Shown piece by piece: positions 4,120-37,357 of a DNA stretch of 38,621 nucleotides. Numbering within the stretch: position 1 is the first letter of the stretch; the number at the start of each line of letters is the position of its first letter. Under the pieces are notes generated by a model. That model did not search any database. It was not told where the DNA came from and saw only the letters and a program-made list of their open reading frames with translations. The DNA comes from a virus (lineage: Duplodnaviria; Heunggongvirae; Uroviricota; Caudoviricetes), in IMG/VR virus record IMGVR_UViG_2541047830_000013; one strand, 5' to 3'. Made by a program: the position numbers and the translations under genes.

Positions 4120-4240
4120 GAAACCAGAACATGCACACACAAAAAAACCGCTTGCCATGCCGCAATCAGTCAGGTTACATTTCCGCTGCACCTCACAAAA
4201 CGGGTGCCGGGTTTCGCAGCCTGCTGACTACACAAGCGCA

Positions 4241-4262
4241 CAACCGCGCCAGCGGTTTTTTT
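4241..4262 (+). terminator. Rho-independent terminator-like hairpin (aaccgc-gcca-gcggtt followed by a T7 run)
   Basis: Stem 4242-4247 / 4252-4257, then ttttttt to 4262; lies in a 320-bp stretch with no convincing ORF. Confidence 0.5.
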
Positions 4263-4441
4263 GTGCGTACTGTATTGCCACGTTTTTTTCGCGTCAGAAT
4301 TATGGCGGGGCGTACGGGGCCGACTTCGGTCGGGCCGGGTTCTTGTGTAGCCGGTACTGCGAACCTCGTACGTCTCGCCACCCACAGTTTCGCAGCTCTG
4401 GATGGTGAGTTTTCACAACTTACTACACAAGGGGCCACACC

Positions 4442-4672
4442 ATGGCAAACCGCAAACCACACCGCGCTATCGCGGAGCGTCGTCACATCCAGACTGAAAT
4501 CAACCGCAGACTTTCCCGCGCATCACGCGTCGCGCAAATCATGCACATCAATATGCTGCATGAGCGCAGCCACGCACTATCAAACATTTATTCCGCCTCT
4601 GTTTTCAGCTATCTGGCGGATGATCTGCACGAGCTTCAACAGCTCATCCAGCAGCAAAACAAACTCCATTAA
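4442..4672 (+). CDS. Hypothetical basic protein (76 aa)
   Basis: ATG 4442 with AAGGGG 7 nt upstream; preferred over the overlapping low-complexity 205-aa ORF 4131..4748. Confidence 0.4.
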   Translation: MANRKPHRAIAERRHIQTEINRRLSRASRVAQIMHINMLHERSHALSNIYSASVFSYLADDLHELQQLIQQQNKLH

Positions 4673-5116: not shown

Positions 5117-7939
5117 ATGACGGCAGAGTACATCAGGGACTGGCAACAACCGCGCCACGCAGTGGGGCGTGAAGGAACGGGGATCCCCGCTCCTGAATCC
5201 GCGCTTTCCTCCTGGCTGGATGCCTACCGGGTAGAGAACGAGCACCGCCAGGAAATGGCTGATGCGGCGTTCTCCGCAACGCCGCTGGGCAACCTGATTA
5301 ATAAAAGCCTGGACGCACAGGAAAAACAGGACAAAACCATCACACTGGCAGGAGATGCCAGAAAACAGGCACGCGGCGCGGTGGATGAAGCCATGGCCTC
5401 GCTGCGCCTGCTGCCGTCCTATCTGCGCGATCCGCTTATTCGCCACCTCTCCTTCCTGCGCAAAAAACAGGAAGCCGATCGTCAGAAAGGCAAAAAGAGC
5501 TGGCAGGCTGAACGCTACGCGCGCGGAAACCTGCGCAAAATATTCGAACGTCTGGAGCGCACCGATCACCGCTGGCTGACACAGGGTTATCGCTCCCTTG
5601 CCGGACGCGAACGCCTGGACGATTTGCTTTACCTGCCGCAGCTCAACAAACACCAGATACAGACACTGGCCACCATGACGGCGGCGATGTTCAGCAGCAC
5701 CTTCGAAAAACTCTGCGATGGCTTTGGCGCGACCGATGGCGAACTGACCATGGATGTAACGCTGAAGGCGTATCAGATGCTGGCCCGCATGGCGTTACAC
5801 CTGCACGCCATGCCTCCACATTATGACGCACTGACAACAGACAAAGACCAGAGGAACGAACCGGACACGGAGCTGCTGCCGGGCGCAATCCTTCGCCTGA
5901 CCTGTGCAGAATGGTGGAAACGCAAACTGTGGCTGTTACGTTGCGAGTGGAGAGAAGAACAACTCCGCGCCGCCTGTCTGGTTTCCAGAAAAACATCGCC
6001 CTATCTGAGCCAGGACGCGTTAAGCGAGTTTCGCGCACAGCGCGAGAAAACACGCGATTTCCTGAAAAGTTTCATGCTGGAAAATGAAGACGGGTTCACG
6101 ATTGATCTCGAGACGGTGTATTACGCGGGAGTAAGTAACCCGGTTCACCGTAAGGCAGAAATGATGGCCACCATGAAGGGGCTGGAACTTCTGGCCGAAG
6201 CCCGTGGCGACAAAGCGGTGTTTCTGACTGTCACCTGCCCGTCAAAATACCACGCCACAACAGAGAACGGTCATCCGAATCCCAAATGGAACGGGGCCAC
6301 CATGCGCGACTCCAGCGATTACCTGGTTAACACGTTTTTTGCGGCGGTCCGCAAAAAACTGAACCGCGACGGTCTTCGCTGGTATGGCATCCGCACGGTG
6401 GAGCCTCACCATGACGGCACCGTGCACTGGCATATGATGGTCTTTGCTCATCCGGAAGAAATCGACAGCATCGTGGCCATCACCCGCGATATTGCCATTC
6501 AGGAAGACCGCCACGAGCTGGGCAATGATATTACTCCGCGCTTTAAGGCGGAGTATGTCGACGGCTCAAAAGGCACACCAACCAGCTATATCGCGACCTA
6601 CATCGGAAAGAACCTGGACAGCCGCGCCGTGGATGGCATCGACCCGAAAACGGGCAAGCCACGCGTTGACCACGAAACCGGAAAATCAATGGCCGAGAGT
6701 GTGGAGCGCGCCATCGGCTGGGCGCGCCTTCATCGGGTCCGCCAGTTCCAGTTCTTTGGCATCCCCTCCCGTCAGGTGTGGCGTGAACTGCGCCGCCTTG
6801 CCAGCCAGATGGCACGCAACCCGGAAGGCCCGCAACGACTGAAAGATGACGCAATGGATGCGGTACTCGCTGCCGCCGATGCCGGGTGTTTTGCCACCTA
6901 CATTGAAAAACAGGGCGGCGTACTTGTTCCACGCAAAGACTACCTGATTCGCACCGCCTACGACCTCGCAGATGAGCTGAATGATTACGGCGAACAGAGC
7001 GTACAGATTTACGGGATCTGGTCACCACTCATCGGGGAATCCTCCCGTGTGTGCACGCATCCGGATAACTGGAAACTGGTAAGACGTAAACCGGAAACGG
7101 AAGACAGCGCCCGCGAAAATGGTTTTGACCTTCAGGGCGGCCCTGCCGCCCCTTGGACTCGTGGCAATAACTGTCCCCGTGTACAGGAAACGGACAACAA
7201 CGGGACAGAACAGCCGGAAGAACGGCCAGCACCGTGGCCGCAGCTCCCTGACGGCGTTGAAGTGAACGAATGGATGCGCTCACTGAAACGACACGAACGC
7301 CGGGCGCTGATGCGTTCGCTTCGTGACAAACAGGCAAAAAACAGCAGCGATGAAATGCAGAGCTGGACACAGAGCCGCAAACAGCAGCGGCCTTTGCCTG
7401 ATAACCACGAATTACTCGCTAAAGAATGGCGGGAGTCTGCTGAATCTCTCGGCCTGCATATCGGTGAACAACAGATGCAGCACCTGTTACGGGGCGGCAG
7501 TCTGTACGTTGACGGCAGCATCATTGCACCGCAGGGATTTGAAATTGTACGCAAACCGGATACCCGCCCGGACAGCCGAATCACGCAGCTCTGGCAGCGC
7601 CTGAGCCGTAATCACGGCGTAAGCAGCACGGAGATCCGCCATAACCCGGTCTCCAGCTATCTGGCACAGCTCGGGGCATCAGACCCCGAAGCCGCCGCAC
7701 GCCTGGCATCCACACTTCAGCAGGTCCAGAACACCATGAAAACACCCGTTACCGTGCTTTCTGACATGCTGCGCGCCATTCGTGACGCAGAGCACGCACA
7801 GAGAATCAGAGAAACCACTGAACGCGCCCGCCGCAAAGCAAACCTGCTGAGGGCTGGCCTGACCAGTGGAAACAAAAAACAGACAGAAACGGGATTCACA
7901 AATCCCGTAAATGAGCAAAAAACGCGCCGCGATATATGA
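5117..7939 (+). CDS. A: Rolling-circle replication initiator (P2 gpA-like, HUH endonuclease)
   Basis: 940 aa; HUH-type motif VHWHMMVF (HWH codons 6425-6433); paired catalytic tyrosines YIATY (codons 6587-6589 and 6599-6601); position after the early operon. Confidence 0.9.
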   Translation: MTAEYIRDWQQPRHAVGREGTGIPAPESALSSWLDAYRVENEHRQEMADAAFSATPLGNLINKSLDAQEKQDKTITLAGDARKQARGAVDEAMASLRLLPSYLRDPLIRHLSFLRKKQEADRQKGKKSWQAERYARGNLRKIFERLERTDHRWLTQGYRSLAGRERLDDLLYLPQLNKHQIQTLATMTAAMFSSTFEKLCDGFGATDGELTMDVTLKAYQMLARMALHLHAMPPHYDALTTDKDQRNEPDTELLPGAILRLTCAEWWKRKLWLLRCEWREEQLRAACLVSRKTSPYLSQDALSEFRAQREKTRDFLKSFMLENEDGFTIDLETVYYAGVSNPVHRKAEMMATMKGLELLAEARGDKAVFLTVTCPSKYHATTENGHPNPKWNGATMRDSSDYLVNTFFAAVRKKLNRDGLRWYGIRTVEPHHDGTVHWHMMVFAHPEEIDSIVAITRDIAIQEDRHELGNDITPRFKAEYVDGSKGTPTSYIATYIGKNLDSRAVDGIDPKTGKPRVDHETGKSMAESVERAIGWARLHRVRQFQFFGIPSRQVWRELRRLASQMARNPEGPQRLKDDAMDAVLAAADAGCFATYIEKQGGVLVPRKDYLIRTAYDLADELNDYGEQSVQIYGIWSPLIGESSRVCTHPDNWKLVRRKPETEDSARENGFDLQGGPAAPWTRGNNCPRVQETDNNGTEQPEERPAPWPQLPDGVEVNEWMRSLKRHERRALMRSLRDKQAKNSSDEMQSWTQSRKQQRPLPDNHELLAKEWRESAESLGLHIGEQQMQHLLRGGSLYVDGSIIAPQGFEIVRKPDTRPDSRITQLWQRLSRNHGVSSTEIRHNPVSSYLAQLGASDPEAAARLASTLQQVQNTMKTPVTVLSDMLRAIRDAEHAQRIRETTERARRKANLLRAGLTSGNKKQTETGFTNPVNEQKTRRDI

Positions 7940-7984
7940 AGCGCGCACAAAACAGGCGAAAGCGGGATTTAAAAATCCCGTAAA
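7890..7984. promoter_or_regulatory. Two 22-bp direct repeats, each an inverted repeat (cgggattcacaaatcccgtaaa / cgggatttaaaaatcccgtaaa); candidate parC-like centromere or operator
   Basis: Copies at 7890-7911 and 7963-7984, 73 bp apart, immediately upstream of the ParM-like gene; a 12-bp perfect palindrome ggttaattaacc follows at 7986-7997. Confidence 0.4.
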
Positions 7985-8015
7985 CGGTTAATTAACCAAC
8001 ATAAGGAAAATCGAC

Positions 8016-8975
8016 ATGAAAATTTGTATCGACGACGGCTCCACCAACATCAAGCTGGCATGGACTGAGAATGGCGAACGCCGCAACGCCATCAGCCCGA
8101 ACAGCTTCAAGTCGGAATGGTCTGCGCCGTTCGGTGGCATGCAGCCCGCGAACTACATGCTTGATGGCGTGCGCTATGGTTTTGATCCGGTCAGCGATCG
8201 CTTTGTCCAGACGACCGACACGCAATACCAGTACAGCGATGTGAATGTAATCGCCATTCATCACGCGCTGGTCAAATCAGGCATCACGCCACAAGAGGTG
8301 GATGTGGTTGTCACCCTGCCACTGAGCGAGTATTTCGAGACAAACGCACAGCCGGACATGGCCAACATCAACCGCAAAAAAGCGAACGTTATGCGCTCGG
8401 TGGAGTACCAGAACGGCGAAGCATTCACTATCCGTAACGTGCGGGTTATGCCTGAATCCATTCCGGCTGGCTTTAAAGCACTGGCTGACATGAGTCCGTT
8501 TGAATCCCTGCTGATTGTGGATTTAGGCGGAACCACGCTGGATGTGGCAAAGGTTCAAGGGCAACTGGCAGGTATCAGCCAGGTGTTTTGCGATCCACAC
8601 GTAGGCGTTTCCCTGATGGCCGATGCCGTACTGTCGGTGATGGCCACTAACGGTATGCGCACCAGTCACCACATCGCCAATACCATTATCGAACATCGCC
8701 ATGATGAAGCCTGGCTGCGCCAGCACATCCACAATGACGCGCATTACGCCAGCCTGATGGCGGTTATTCGTGAAAAGGAAGAAACACTGAAACAACGCGT
8801 GATCCGCGCGCTGGCGGTTTTTTCGGGTTACGGGCGGGTGATGGTTGTCGGTGGAGGGGCGGAGATTGTGGCACCCGCTATCCGCGAAGTCTGCGGAGTT
8901 AATGCGACTTTCATCGCGGACGGAGTGCCACAGTTTGCTCTGGTTAATGGGCTGTACGCAATGGACAAGGAGTAA
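8016..8975 (+). CDS. parM: ParM/StbA-like actin-family segregation ATPase
   Basis: N-terminus MKICIDDGSTNIKL closely resembles plasmid R1 ParM (MLVFIDDGSTNIKL) as recalled; actin-fold phosphate motifs DDGSTNIK and DLGGTTLD; GGGA near C-terminus. Confidence 0.85.
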   Translation: MKICIDDGSTNIKLAWTENGERRNAISPNSFKSEWSAPFGGMQPANYMLDGVRYGFDPVSDRFVQTTDTQYQYSDVNVIAIHHALVKSGITPQEVDVVVTLPLSEYFETNAQPDMANINRKKANVMRSVEYQNGEAFTIRNVRVMPESIPAGFKALADMSPFESLLIVDLGGTTLDVAKVQGQLAGISQVFCDPHVGVSLMADAVLSVMATNGMRTSHHIANTIIEHRHDEAWLRQHIHNDAHYASLMAVIREKEETLKQRVIRALAVFSGYGRVMVVGGGAEIVAPAIREVCGVNATFIADGVPQFALVNGLYAMDKE

Positions 8976-8979
8976 ACCA

Positions 8980-9294
8980 ATGACGACACCAACCAGACGG
9001 ATAAGTTTCTATCTGAAGCCCGCCGCCGTCAAGAGTGAACAGGAGGCGTGCAATTACCTCGATAGCCTGCCAGCCTCCGAACGCAGCCGCGCGCAACGCG
9101 CGGCCTTTCTGGCTGGGCTAGCGCTCATAAAGCGCAACCCAGCATTTGCCTACTGGATGGCCGAATGGCCAGAGGACAACCTCCCCTTCAATACCGTTAG
9201 CATCAAGGAAACATACCAGGATAATCAGCCTAGCGGAGTTGAATGCAATTTTTATAAAATAAAAAAGAATATTCAGACCTTATTCCCAGAATAA
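8980..9294 (+). CDS. parR: ParR/StbB-like centromere-binding adaptor
   Basis: LDSLPASERSRAQRAAFLAGLAL resembles R1 ParR LDSIPQGERSRLNRAALTAGLAL as recalled; directly downstream of the ParM-like gene. Confidence 0.7.
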   Translation: MTTPTRRISFYLKPAAVKSEQEACNYLDSLPASERSRAQRAAFLAGLALIKRNPAFAYWMAEWPEDNLPFNTVSIKETYQDNQPSGVECNFYKIKKNIQTLFPE

Positions 9295-9342: not shown

Positions 9343-9367
9343 TGGCACCCTTGCTAACAGGGTGCCA
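9343..9367. terminator. Hairpin between convergent parR-like and membrane-protein genes (8-bp stem tggcaccc / gggtgcca)
   Basis: Read directly; no strong U-tract, so terminator function is inferred from position. Confidence 0.35.
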
Positions 9368-9377
9368 ATGTTTCAAA

Positions 9378-10220
9378 TCATGATGAAATTGCCGAAGTTT
9401 TTTTATCGTGCTGAAGTACCGCAAATGCCATTAAAACCTCAAGAGAATAGCGGCGATAATACTTAACAAAACCATAATAAAATACTCGGGATGCAGCAAT
9501 ACAAAACAAGAGAAGAAAACAAAAAGGTAACAGTCTGATATTTATATCTATTAAAAAGGATAGAAGGAGCAGGAACATAAGCAACCAGACTGAAGCGAGA
9601 AAAACAAATGTAATGTTTCTACAAAAACCATACAAAGCAACATAGTTTTGCATTTTCACCTGATGATTTTTAGAATGTTCATACACATAATGATAAGCAA
9701 GGCGAAAAAGATCGCCCCTCAAGCCCTTACGTCGATATAGCGTAGATACAGAAAAAACATTTATATAACCATCTCGTATTTGCGGCCAAAAGACTTTAAT
9801 AAGTATAGAATGCAGTGTGGTTTTATGATGTTCTGCTTTATCAAAAGCTGATACAGGAAATAAAAAAACTCCACGAATAAAATTAACTATACTGAACTTA
9901 GTATTATGTCGTTTTATTTTCAGGGAGCTTCTTTTAGAAAACAGATAAATTGAAGGATACCCAAGTTTACTGTTCATGTATTTTTCAATTAAACAGGATG
10001 ATAGAATAGATATGAAGTGACCTGAAATATATGATAGAACGATTAATACCACATATATAAATACACTTATTATTTCTTTATATTTCAGGATATGGTTAAG
10101 AATACCTTCTATATAAACAGGGTTAATTTCAATAGAAAACAAAAAAAGGATAAACAGGAATAACCCACCTGGAATTAGATAGCCCAAAAAGTCATAAAAT
10201 GAAAACGGATTCTGTGTCAC
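9378..10220 (-). CDS. AT-rich multi-pass membrane protein (280 aa), function unknown
   Basis: At least 4-5 hydrophobic helices; strongly AT-rich relative to the phage backbone; GTG start with AGGGGGAA upstream; second gene of a minus-strand pair. Confidence 0.6.
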   Translation of the reverse strand: MTQNPFSFYDFLGYLIPGGLFLFILFLFSIEINPVYIEGILNHILKYKEIISVFIYVVLIVLSYISGHFISILSSCLIEKYMNSKLGYPSIYLFSKRSSLKIKRHNTKFSIVNFIRGVFLFPVSAFDKAEHHKTTLHSILIKVFWPQIRDGYINVFSVSTLYRRKGLRGDLFRLAYHYVYEHSKNHQVKMQNYVALYGFCRNITFVFLASVWLLMFLLLLSFLIDINIRLLPFCFLLLFCIAASRVFYYGFVKYYRRYSLEVLMAFAVLQHDKKTSAISS

Positions 10221-10429
10221 ACTTCCCCCTGTGTTACTTGTAAATTAAAGGGTAAAACATTATTTGTTTTTCCGTAAAGGATTAGCTTTCCATCTTCTTA
10301 CTAACCATTCGAATTCTTGATATGTAGTATCCGAATTAATGCTTTCTCTGATTGCTTTAATTAATGGCTCGGCAATATCATATGTCTCTACAACTGTTGT
10401 GTAAGATGTTCTTTTTATCATTTTTTCAT

Positions 10430-10438
10430 CATAAATAC
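10430..10438. repeat. Left copy of 9-bp target-site duplication cataaatac
   Basis: Identical to 11496-11504, immediately flanking the IS ends. Confidence 0.85.
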
Positions 10439-11495
10439 GGCTTTGTTGAATAAATCGAACTTTTGCTGAGTTGAAGGATCAGATCACGTATCTTCCCGAC
10501 AACGCAGACCGTTCCGTGGCAAAGCAAAAGTTCAAAATCACCAACTGGCCCACCTACAATAAAGCCCTCATCAACCGTGGCTCCATAACTTTCTGGCTGG
10601 ATGATGAAGCTATTCAGGCCTGGTATGAGTCAGCAACACCTTCTTCACGAGGCAGACCTCAGCGCTATTCTGACCTTGCCATCACTACTGTGCTGGTCAT
10701 TAAACGCGTATTCAGGCTGACCCTGCGGGCTGCGCAGGGCTTTATTGATTCCATTTTTTCTCTGATGAACGTTCCGCTACGCTGCCCGGATTACAGCTGT
10801 GTCAGCAGGCGGGCAAAGTCGGTTAATGTCAGTTTCAAAACGCCCACCCGGGGTGAAATCGCACACCTGGTAATTGATTCCACCGGGCTGAAGGTCTTCG
10901 GTGAAGGCGAGTGGAAAGTCAAAAAGCATGGCCAGGAACGCCGCCGTATCTGGCGTAAGCTGCATCTCGCCGTTGACAGTAAAACACATGAAATCATCTG
11001 CGCTGACCTGTCGCTGAACAACGTTACGGACTCAGAGGCCTTCCCCGGGTTAATCCGGCAAACCCACCGGAAAATCAGGTCAGCCGCCGCCGATGGCGCT
11101 TACGATACCCGGCTATGTCACGATGAACTGCGGCGTAAGAAAATCAGCGCGCTTATCCCTCCCCGAAAAGGTGCGGGTTACTGGCCCGGTGAATATGCAG
11201 ACCGTAACCGTGCAGTGGCTAATCAGCGAATGACCGGGAGTAATGCGCGGTGGAAATGGACAACAGATTACAATCGTCGCTCGATAGCGGAAACGGCGAT
11301 GTACCGGGTAAAACAGCTGTTCGGGGGTTCACTGACGCTGCGTGACTACGATGGTCAGGTTGCGGAGGCTATGGCCCTGGTACGAGCGCTGAACAAAATG
11401 ACGAAAGCAGATATGCCTGAAAGCGTGCGTATTGCCTGAAAACACAACCCGCTACGGGGGAGACTTACCCGAAATCTGATTTATTCAACAAAGCC
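10439..11495 (+). mobile_element. IS903 (IS5 family), complete 1057-bp copy
   Basis: Terminal inverted repeats ggctttgttgaataaatcg at 10439 and its reverse complement ending at 11495; 1057 bp; single transposase ORF; perfect 9-bp direct repeats on both sides. Confidence 0.9.
10516..11439 (+). CDS. IS903 transposase (307 aa from GTG)
   Basis: Sequence recalled as IS903/IS102-type transposase; track ORF begins at TTG 10471, likely GTG 10516. Confidence 0.85.
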   Translation: MAKQKFKITNWPTYNKALINRGSITFWLDDEAIQAWYESATPSSRGRPQRYSDLAITTVLVIKRVFRLTLRAAQGFIDSIFSLMNVPLRCPDYSCVSRRAKSVNVSFKTPTRGEIAHLVIDSTGLKVFGEGEWKVKKHGQERRRIWRKLHLAVDSKTHEIICADLSLNNVTDSEAFPGLIRQTHRKIRSAAADGAYDTRLCHDELRRKKISALIPPRKGAGYWPGEYADRNRAVANQRMTGSNARWKWTTDYNRRSIAETAMYRVKQLFGGSLTLRDYDGQVAEAMALVRALNKMTKADMPESVRIA

Positions 11496-11504
11496 CATAA
11501 ATAC
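11496..11504. repeat. Right copy of 9-bp target-site duplication cataaatac
   Basis: Identical to 10430-10438. Confidence 0.85.
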
Positions 11505-11837
11505 CTTCACGAATACTTACAGCAACTCGCTCGTAAAAATTTAAAATATATTGAAATTTTCGACGCTCGGCCATTTCTTCATCTGTTATTATGCAACCAT
11601 CACAAGGAAAAACATAAGAACGAAATGATTTGCCTGAACGATGCACTTGTTTCAGGGTATGCAATGACTCTATATATTGCATATCTTGCCGACTCTCAAA
11701 AAGAAAGTTGGCCGTTTGAGTTTTTTTTGCGGTACGCACATTGTAGATAATGGTTCCAATGGCAACCAAAACGCCAAGCAGAACAATAGCATTGCTGATG
11801 ATTTGTAGTGTTATTGGGTTCATCCTATTTCATCCAT

Positions 11838-36463: not shown

Positions 36464-37357
36464 ATGAAAAATATAATTTTTTCTATAGGTGCATCATTTA
36501 TATCAATTAGTGTACTGCCTGTTCACGCAGCAACTGAACATAAGAACTTCAATGCAGTACTCCAGTGCCGAGCAATAGAAAATAATAAAGACAGACTTTC
36601 TTGTTACGATAAGTCAATACAACCGACTCGAACGAAAGTTGCTGAAAAATTCGAAAGCAGAGATCAATGCCCTGATGAGAAAGATGATGATAGACGTTTA
36701 TCTTGTTATGATCGTTTCTTTTCTCCAACATTTACTCCATCTGTAAACTCAAAATCTAAAACGGAAAAGCCAGTAACAACAGAGGCTCAGCAACCAAATC
36801 TTTCTGAGATATCTAAATGTCGTGCAGAAAATGATAAAGAAGCTAGACTAAACTGCTACGATAAACTATTCCCACAGGATAAAATCGTTCAAGCTGAATC
36901 AAAATTAGAGAAAGCCACAGATGTAGGAAAATGGCACACATCCATTACTACATCGCCAATTGATGATTCGAAAAATGTAATTTTATCGTTAGAAAGTGAT
37001 GATTATATCAGAACTCCATTTGGAGAAGCGGTTACTCCTACTCTTTTTATAGCTTGCCGAGAAAAGAAAACCGAAGTATTTCTTAGTTGGGATGTATATT
37101 TAGGCCTTGAACAAACCAGCATGCTTTATCGCCTTGATAAACAGAAAGCAGTTGAGCGAAACTGGCTAGTATCTACAGATACAAAGGCTGTTTTTTATAA
37201 AGGTAATGACATTGATTTCATCCGAAAACTAGCCAACTCAAGCAAAATGTATACAAAAATAACGCCTTATAATGAGAGCCCCGTAAGTGCAACTTTCAAT
37301 TTAAACGGCCTGTCAAACGCGCTAAAACCGCTTCAAGCTGCTTGTAACTGGAAATAG
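36464..37357 (+). CDS. Secreted protein with three Cys-containing repeats plus a C-terminal domain (297 aa)
   Basis: Signal peptide ending VHA-A; three repeats of the form C-x8-RLSCYD-x-F/I (QCRAIENNKDRLSCYDK, QCPDEKDDDRRLSCYDR, KCRAENDKEARLNCYDK); 5 nt after the upstream gene. Confidence 0.6.
   Translation: MKNIIFSIGASFISISVLPVHAATEHKNFNAVLQCRAIENNKDRLSCYDKSIQPTRTKVAEKFESRDQCPDEKDDDRRLSCYDRFFSPTFTPSVNSKSKTEKPVTTEAQQPNLSEISKCRAENDKEARLNCYDKLFPQDKIVQAESKLEKATDVGKWHTSITTSPIDDSKNVILSLESDDYIRTPFGEAVTPTLFIACREKKTEVFLSWDVYLGLEQTSMLYRLDKQKAVERNWLVSTDTKAVFYKGNDIDFIRKLANSSKMYTKITPYNESPVSATFNLNGLSNALKPLQAACNWK

Follow-up and report, generated by a model that had tools for sequence, protein, structure and literature searches.

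In the type II segregation system of plasmid R1 and related IncF plasmids (ParMRC, also parA/stb), the cis-acting site is followed by parM and parR, and ten 11-bp direct iterons flank a promoter that is embedded in the centromere parC. The centromere repeats of plasmid pB171 differ in organisation, and the P1-like phage D6, which has a related ParM, is maintained as a plasmid, where the role of a partition system is obvious. At a more general level, partition systems are considered a trait of plasmids and phage-plasmids and are very rare in integrating phages (PMC10879196). In the CGP3 prophage of Corynebacterium glutamicum, the actin-like AlpAC system is induced early, and the excised circle of phage DNA depends on it to replicate efficiently (PMC4446434). 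Here we analyse an R1-type cassette carried by an integrating phage of the P2 family, namely the parM and parR genes that follow replication gene A in the IMG/VR virus record IMGVR_UViG_2541047830_000013, a stretch of 38,621 nucleotides that is referred to as the window. With moderate confidence, we read these two genes and a pair of short palindromes astride the end of gene A as a complete R1-type (type II, ParMRC) segregation cassette that would be functional and would move or position free circles of phage DNA, a reading that draws on sequence comparison and on analogy with described systems. The initial annotation had suggested a plasmid-prophage lifestyle, a captured plasmid fragment or a repurposed actin-like system; of the three, the last, with phage DNA as its cargo, is favoured.

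The genes of the cassette and the replication gene in front of it are arranged in the window as follows.

5117-7939, + strand: gene A-type replication endonuclease, 940 aa (PF05840 Phage_GPA, 5.3e-131; 'replication endonuclease' in the PGAP annotation of NZ_CP055022)
8003-8007, + strand: ribosome-binding site of parM, AAGGA, within a CATAAGGA context common to the parM leader of an R1-type IncF plasmid
8016-8975, + strand: parM, actin-fold ATPase, 319 aa (assigned by Pfam, PDB and motifs)
8980-9294, + strand: parR, adaptor, 104 aa (PF10784 Plasmid_stab_B, the ParR/StbB family, 7.7e-29)

Only 4 nt separate parM from parR, and both genes come directly after gene A. Judged from its sequence, ParM is an actin-fold ATPase of full length in which the nucleotide-binding motifs are intact. 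It matches the Pfam families StbA_N (1.4e-81) and ParM C-terminal domain (1e-68), it aligns over its full length (residues 2-316) with the structure of R1 ParM (1mwk, E 3.1e-92), to which it is ~46-47% identical, and its motifs DDGSTN at position 6, MPES at 145, DLGGTT at 169 and GGGAE at 279 align with the same motifs of R1 ParM. We take these motifs to be, respectively, phosphate 1, the catalytic Glu, phosphate 2 and the adenosine loop. The adaptor belongs to the same Pfam family as R1 ParR. As a single sequence it matches pB171 ParR (2jd3) weakly (E 0.012), the pairwise similarity being low, whereas a family profile made from ten ParR sequences of phages, an integrative and conjugative element (ICE) and plasmids, and searched against the PDB, matched 2jd3 as the sole solved structure with an E value of 1.8e-16 over profile positions 4-115, which supports the same N-terminal DNA-binding fold. 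The identification of the two proteins as ParM and ParR, proposed initially from the letters alone, is confirmed by Pfam profile alignment for both of them and by these matches to R1 and pB171.

The layout of ParR comprises an N-terminal domain of the ribbon-helix-helix type, a hypervariable linker and a conserved C-terminal tail. In an alignment with the R1-type ParR encoded by an IncF plasmid, the N-terminal strand is common to the phage (RRISFYLKP) and R1 (RRTIAFKLNP) proteins, and so are the two helices that come next and precede the variable linker. The E. coli phage proteins have 103-104 aa, compared with 117 in R1, and do not contain the helix aligned to R1 residues ~68-83. At the other end of the protein, the tails of the window (KKNIQTLFPE), P88 (AGNIRALFPE), Plesiomonas (RKNAASLFPR) and R1 (KKNAMKLIN) follow a pattern, (K/R)(K/Q)N-x3-L(F/I), that aligns across the ParRs of phages, an ICE and plasmids, the R1 type among them, with Asn97 invariant and Phe102 nearly so; the window protein and R1 share its KKN-x3-L form. 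Since the C-terminus of R1 ParR is the part that binds ParM, the conservation of this tail suggests that the contact between adaptor and motor appears to be retained in the phage.

The cassette is carried by a prophage of the P2 family, P88-like (Xuanwuvirus, Peduoviridae), that accounts for the 38.6-kb window and is integrated between pdxB and flk. The integrated state, already proposed in the initial annotation, is corroborated by the integrase gene at the start of the window, by the host gene flk at its end (NCBIfam PRK10715, 2.5e-152) and by the presence of pdxB on the other flank in the 99.9%-identical E. coli locus NZ_CP055022. In the PGAP annotation of that locus, pdxB is followed by the integrase, a repressor-like helix-turn-helix gene, cox, small early genes and the 940-aa replication endonuclease; after the latter come ParM, the partitioning/stability protein, two accessory genes, the portal, the terminase and structural genes of the P2 type. 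The nearest isolated phages are P88 and other members of Xuanwuvirus, with 95-99% nucleotide identity across the region. By megablast, the cassette region is found in 1304 of 5426 complete E. coli genomes, in up to three copies per genome, and 1442 of its 1444 places in them are chromosomal.

The names of the cassette genes are not new. They are labelled 'plasmid segregation protein ParM' and 'plasmid partitioning/stability family protein' by PGAP in NZ_CP055022, and they are also named in RefSeq phage P88 and in PHROGs ('partition protein'). Thus, the observation that a ParMR module occurs unexpectedly in an integrating P2-like phage holds as regards the module and its setting, while the module itself had already been annotated in RefSeq P88 and PHROGs. 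The sole mention found in the literature is that of a homologue in phage phiSM, listed as a fitness factor (PMC6456863), and a literature search found no functional study of the cassette in an integrating phage. The identity of the proteins is ordinary.

The conservation of the cassette was analysed in 84 related loci, made up of 81 IMG/VR viral contigs, a few genome or phage records and the window. In all 84, parM is an open reading frame (ORF) of 319 aa, and its population ratio of nonsynonymous to synonymous substitution rates (dN/dS) is ~0.06 (mean, 65 distinct alleles). A scan of GTDB with the single protein returned three near-identical loci, and more distant relatives were obtained by protein search and contig look-ups. 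Among 50,697 phage records, related ParMs are confined to Xuanwuvirus and D6, the latter at 47% identity. In a large protein database, intermediates were found in Hafnia and Plesiomonas (62%), Serratia (56-58%) and Enterobacter (53%), all of them in P2-like prophages in which gene A is followed by 0-2 small ORFs, parM, a PF10784 parR and, later, portal and terminase. ParMs at 48-51% identity belong to a Dickeya ICE, an integrated plasmid of Mangrovibacter and a Pantoea plasmid. Within the best 5000 plasmid ParM records, all lie below 60% identity (listed values up to 51%) except six records at 95% or more, and the plasmid-record matches at this level that were examined in the DNA search are prophage-bearing or phage-sized. 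Neighbour joining of 107 ParMs places the phage-borne proteins in a clade of 16 to which the Dickeya, Mangrovibacter, Pantoea and R1-type ParMs do not belong. The G+C content of parMR (51-57%) is like that of the phage backbone, compared with 30-40% in the accessory genes downstream. The intact parM, its low dN/dS, the conserved position in five genera, the separate clade and the backbone-like G+C together indicate that the cassette is an old, selected and core-like part of one P2-family clade (Xuanwuvirus/P88 and relatives), and neither a recent plasmid fragment nor a relic.

A few records stand apart from this distribution. P88-like sequence including parMR is present inside 'plasmid' records of PLSDB with sizes from 228 kb to 1.4 Mb (NZ_MK439959.1, CP054248.1, NZ_CP114132.1, NZ_CP110658.1 and CP061244.1), which reflect either integration of the phage into large plasmids or records derived from chromosomes. 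A ParM locus of the E. coli type, 97% identical, is found on a 226-kb contig labelled Vagococcus sp. WN89Y, a member of the Firmicutes (NZ_JBQPOM010000071.1), and is most likely due to contamination or to a mislabelled assembly.

Three inverted repeats precede the parM ribosome-binding site, two of which are candidates for the cis-acting part of the cassette.

7890-7907, no strand assigned: site r1, CGGGATTCACAAATCCCG, candidate ParR-binding site (parC half 1), with 7-bp inverted arms and a 4-nt centre
7963-7980, no strand assigned: site r2, CGGGATTTAAAAATCCCG, candidate ParR-binding site (parC half 2), intergenic, 73 bp past r1 from start to start
7986-7997, no strand assigned: GGTTAATTAACC, perfect 12-bp palindrome, 5 nt before the AAGGA ribosome-binding site

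Apart from r1 and r2, the 38.6 kb contain no exact match to CGGGATT-N4-AATCCCG, of which ~3e-4 would be expected by chance, and each of the two sites lies within a longer 39-nt direct repeat with 82% identity between copies. No further copies were evident in the window, a search with up to three mismatches giving 3 matches compared with 1.9 expected. The initial annotation had described the two palindromes as lying 73 bp from each other, upstream of the partition genes; the repeats and their spacing stand, but r1 falls within the last 17 codons of the gene A coding sequence (stop codon, 7937-7939), and only r2 is intergenic.

A paired GGG-N10-CCC arrangement upstream of parM is also found in Hafnia and Plesiomonas, where the ParMs are 62% identical to that of the window and the spacing is 73 and 72 bp, respectively. 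A four-way alignment of E. coli, P88, Hafnia and Plesiomonas shows no change in the GGGA and CCC blocks of either site, against a background of diverged intervening and flanking DNA, and within E. coli the variation of the sites is mostly located in their centres. As regards secondary structure, the E. coli sites may fold into hairpins of -10.7 and -11.0 kcal/mol, which none of 200 shuffled sequences equals, whereas those of Hafnia and Plesiomonas reach just -4 to -5 kcal/mol. Because arms and spacing are kept while the stability of the hairpin drops, the conserved feature would be two short inverted blocks with a constant spacing rather than a stem, which favours a protein-binding site in double-stranded DNA. 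The right half of the site, AAA(T/A)CCC, is similar to AAACCC, the core of the R1-type iterons that precede parM on the IncF plasmid.

The putative reader of these sites, ParR, is near-invariant over residues 1-18 in the 84 loci, with a few single substitutions at positions 10 and 15-18. From residue 19 it falls into two allele classes, which have their site variants in common. This sharing of sites across allele classes is consistent with an N-terminal strand that reads the conserved arms, as would be expected from it. A co-variation between ParR allele class and site variants was considered and discarded, both classes having the same sites. At the level of the gene, a comparison of parR in the window (8980-9294) with that of P88 (7181-7492) reveals at least two allele classes with a sharp divergence from residue 19, in addition to the hypervariable linker, next to parM genes that are 97-99% identical. 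The breakpoint lies at about window position 9035, and the window allele has an AT-rich 3' end, as though this part had been exchanged along with the downstream accessory region.

The third repeat, GGTTAATTAACC, had also been pointed out in the initial annotation; it is real and close to the ribosome-binding site, and it is not unusual in itself. The window contains 5 perfect 12-bp palindromes compared with ~9 expected, and with no enrichment of this class the repeat was rejected as a significant element. Only its TTAAT.AA core is conserved in Hafnia and Plesiomonas. A change from GG..CC to GA..TC was likewise rejected as compensatory, as it follows one haplotype and GG..TC intermediates exist.

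With respect to expression, a consensus scan of the + strand found no sigma-70 promoter between 7600 and 8016, which, the scan being crude, is weak negative evidence, and manual inspection of hexamers between and after the sites yielded weak candidates only. No + strand terminator was found between gene A and parM, and neither r1 nor r2 is followed by a T-run on the + strand. On the other side of the cassette there is one further element.

9343-9367, no strand assigned: GC-rich hairpin with a 9-bp stem, between parR and the convergent AT-rich gene, lacking the T-run sought by the terminator scan

This hairpin may mark the end of the operon. Given that neither promoter nor terminator was found between gene A and parM, parMR may be expressed early, together with gene A, and we infer that the two genes form the tail of a repressor-controlled early replication operon that would be silent in lysogens.

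In P2, gene A drives rolling-circle replication, giving rise to monomeric double-stranded circles that are also the substrate for packaging. If P88-like phages produce circles of the same type, their replicating genome would be physically plasmid-like. ParR dimers would bind to the two GGG-N10-CCC palindromes astride the end of gene A, whose distance of 73 bp amounts to ~7 helical turns, and so build a small centromere; the ParR tails would then capture the ends of ParM-ATP filaments, and growth of these filaments would push two circles of phage DNA apart. The cassette is proposed to operate while the phage genome exists as a free circle, both between infection and integration and, once the prophage is induced, during gene A replication, because its position resembles that of an early operon and because a centromere has no obvious use for an integrated prophage. 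Positioning of the circles may lead to a better efficiency of replication or packaging, or it may enable both daughter cells to inherit a copy before integration occurs.

The likeness to R1 extends to gene order, to the CATAAGGA leader and to the iteron core. In contrast to R1, the phage cassette is not plasmid-borne: its carrier is an integrating phage, where it follows a gene for rolling-circle replication. A pair of 18-bp palindromes with a spacing of 73 bp takes the place of the ten direct iterons, and the region of these sites shows no consensus promoter in the crude scan. D6 differs in that P88-like phages integrate. The AlpA/AlpC/alpS system of CGP3 shares with the P88-type cassette an integrated prophage, an actin-like ATPase, an adaptor, which in CGP3 is co-transcribed and binds DNA, and sites located upstream, which in the P88 type are candidates (PMC4446434, PMC5539076), and it is proposed as a functional model for it. 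Host phylum and type of phage differ between the two, and the likeness is one of architecture.

Several observations weigh against a segregation cassette acting on free circles. Two candidate sites are few next to the ten iterons of R1 parC and could be an operator alone. The relatives in Serratia and Enterobacter carry another layout, a 14-20-nt inverted repeat with 26-28 nt between its arms, so the two-palindrome arrangement is not universal, and one locus of the E. coli type has a 73-bp deletion that leaves a single site next to an intact parM. Among the 50,697 phage records, P2, 186 and all others outside Xuanwuvirus and D6 are devoid of the cassette, which consequently is not needed for P2-type replication as such. 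An internal promoter may be active in lysogens, given how crude the promoter scan is, and the phage-sized extrachromosomal records (n = 3) suit a plasmid-like state and induced replication equally well.

These points bear differently on the alternatives. The small number of sites, the single-site deletion variant and the stable hairpins of the E. coli palindromes would all agree with palindromes that are not a centromere and serve instead at the transcript level between gene A and parM, be it as RNA hairpins or as other signals for processing, stability or attenuation, or else as a ParR operator for autoregulation without segregation. We regard this as unlikely. The hairpins lose most of their stability in Hafnia and Plesiomonas, yet the GGG-N10-CCC blocks and their spacing are kept there, and a transcript-level signal sits poorly with the lack of a T-run after either site. 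The operator role is compatible with that of a centromere, since both coincide in R1. The phage-sized records speak, in turn, for P88-like phages that, besides integrating, persist as a facultative plasmid-prophage, a low-copy circle partitioned by ParMRC through the two-palindrome centromere. NZ_CP148288.1, a circular 'plasmid' of 34,461 bp, consists of a complete P88-like genome with its junction at int/ogr. The records 'Escherichia phage 520873' and '503458' stand under assembly-style CP accessions and are presumably separate replicons in bacterial assemblies, and D6, which alone among the other phage records has a related ParM, is a plasmid prophage. Such a lifestyle is nonetheless distinctly unlikely in view of the almost exclusive chromosomal placement in complete E. 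coli genomes, of the integrase and Cox-family protein of the phage and of the position of the window copy between pdxB and flk. Neither a replication initiator of the plasmid type nor a theta origin was seen, and the protein that replicates the phage is of the rolling-circle GPA type. Moreover, 5.2 kb of the phage in NZ_CP148288.1 match, with 100% identity, a copy that is integrated in another strain of the same study, so that this circle may be excised replicating DNA.

A function expressed in lysogens and directed at other replicons or at the host, such as partition-type incompatibility towards ParMRC plasmids or related phages that superinfect, or an action on the chromosome of the host, is quite improbable in our judgement. 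The coexistence of up to three related prophages in one genome, the two ParR allele classes with their hypervariable linker, and the fact that the region after gene A is the site of lysogen-expressed accessory genes in P2 would be in line with it. On the contrary, the promoter prediction was negative, within the limits of a crude consensus scan, and the G+C content of parMR is that of the backbone and unlike that of the AT-rich accessory genes directly downstream. A diversified DNA-binding specificity is at odds with the near-invariant N-terminus of ParR and with the sites common to both allele classes, and a role as a defence system was rejected, neither ParM nor ParR matching any PADLOC defence model. 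Finally, a decaying relic of a captured plasmid fragment, without present function, would account for partition genes that are typical of plasmids and rare in phages (PMC10879196), but it is highly improbable: parM is intact in every locus and under strong constraint, the ParR tail and the ATPase motifs are kept, and the position is conserved in five genera. The suggestion of a recent plasmid capture fails on similar grounds, as non-phage plasmid ParMs reach no more than 51% identity among the matches listed from the best 5000 records, and the phage proteins form a clade of their own with backbone G+C. A segregation cassette that repurposes an actin-like system for free phage DNA stays the favoured explanation.

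Other features of the prophage were recorded alongside the cassette. The AT-rich accessory region 3' of parR (30-40% G+C) consists of a gene at 9378-10220 (- strand) and a split gene at 10260-11823 (- strand), and P88 has other genes in its place. The former encodes a 280-aa predicted membrane protein (phrog_12528) with a weak PADLOC match to Csx27 (1.1e-5). The latter, a DUF4760 accessory gene, is divided into 10260-10421 and 11485-11823 by a 1057-bp insertion at 10439-11495 that is not present in the otherwise collinear NZ_CP055022; it carries a 322-aa transposase ORF (10471-11439), and the 9-bp overlap of its flanks corresponds to a 9-bp target duplication. We assume that it is an element of the IS903 group (IS5 family), which size and duplication fit. 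The membrane protein and the DUF4760 protein may constitute a lysogen-expressed defence or exclusion pair. In the early region, on the + strand, Rfam identifies an isrK Hfq-binding RNA at 4188-4262 (64 bits) and a C4 antisense RNA at 4298-4385 (83 bits), both in a gap between early ORFs and just 5' of a 76-aa ORF (4442-4672) whose counterpart in P88 is annotated as 'derepression protein'; the region looks like a P1/P7-type c4-antirepressor immunity module within a P2-like phage. Near the right end of the prophage, a cargo gene at 36464-37357 (+ strand) is similar to VasI, a type VI secretion-associated protein (TIGR03360, 5e-21, under the family cut-off), and a gene of the same kind is listed in phage phiSM under the name 'T6SS VasI family protein' (PMC6456863).

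Regarding the biology of the family, strong purifying selection acts on an R1-type actin-like system in a prophage that is among the commonest of E. coli, and this system is also present in P2-like prophages of four other genera. In practice, a ParM or ParR match in an E. coli chromosome or a phage-sized circle should not be taken as a sign of a plasmid. If dual inheritance, both integrated and as a partitioned circle, proved true, a P2-family phage carried by roughly one in four complete E. coli genomes would be a facultative phage-plasmid. If the cassette indeed positions or partitions free circles, its two-site centromere would be a compact natural parC in which to ask how few ParR sites are enough to capture a ParM filament. 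The P88-type phages would then provide a genetically tractable Gram-negative counterpart to CGP3 AlpAC, and would allow one to ask why an integrating phage with rolling-circle replication needs active segregation, be it for the efficiency of replication or packaging, for inheritance prior to integration or for a carrier state.

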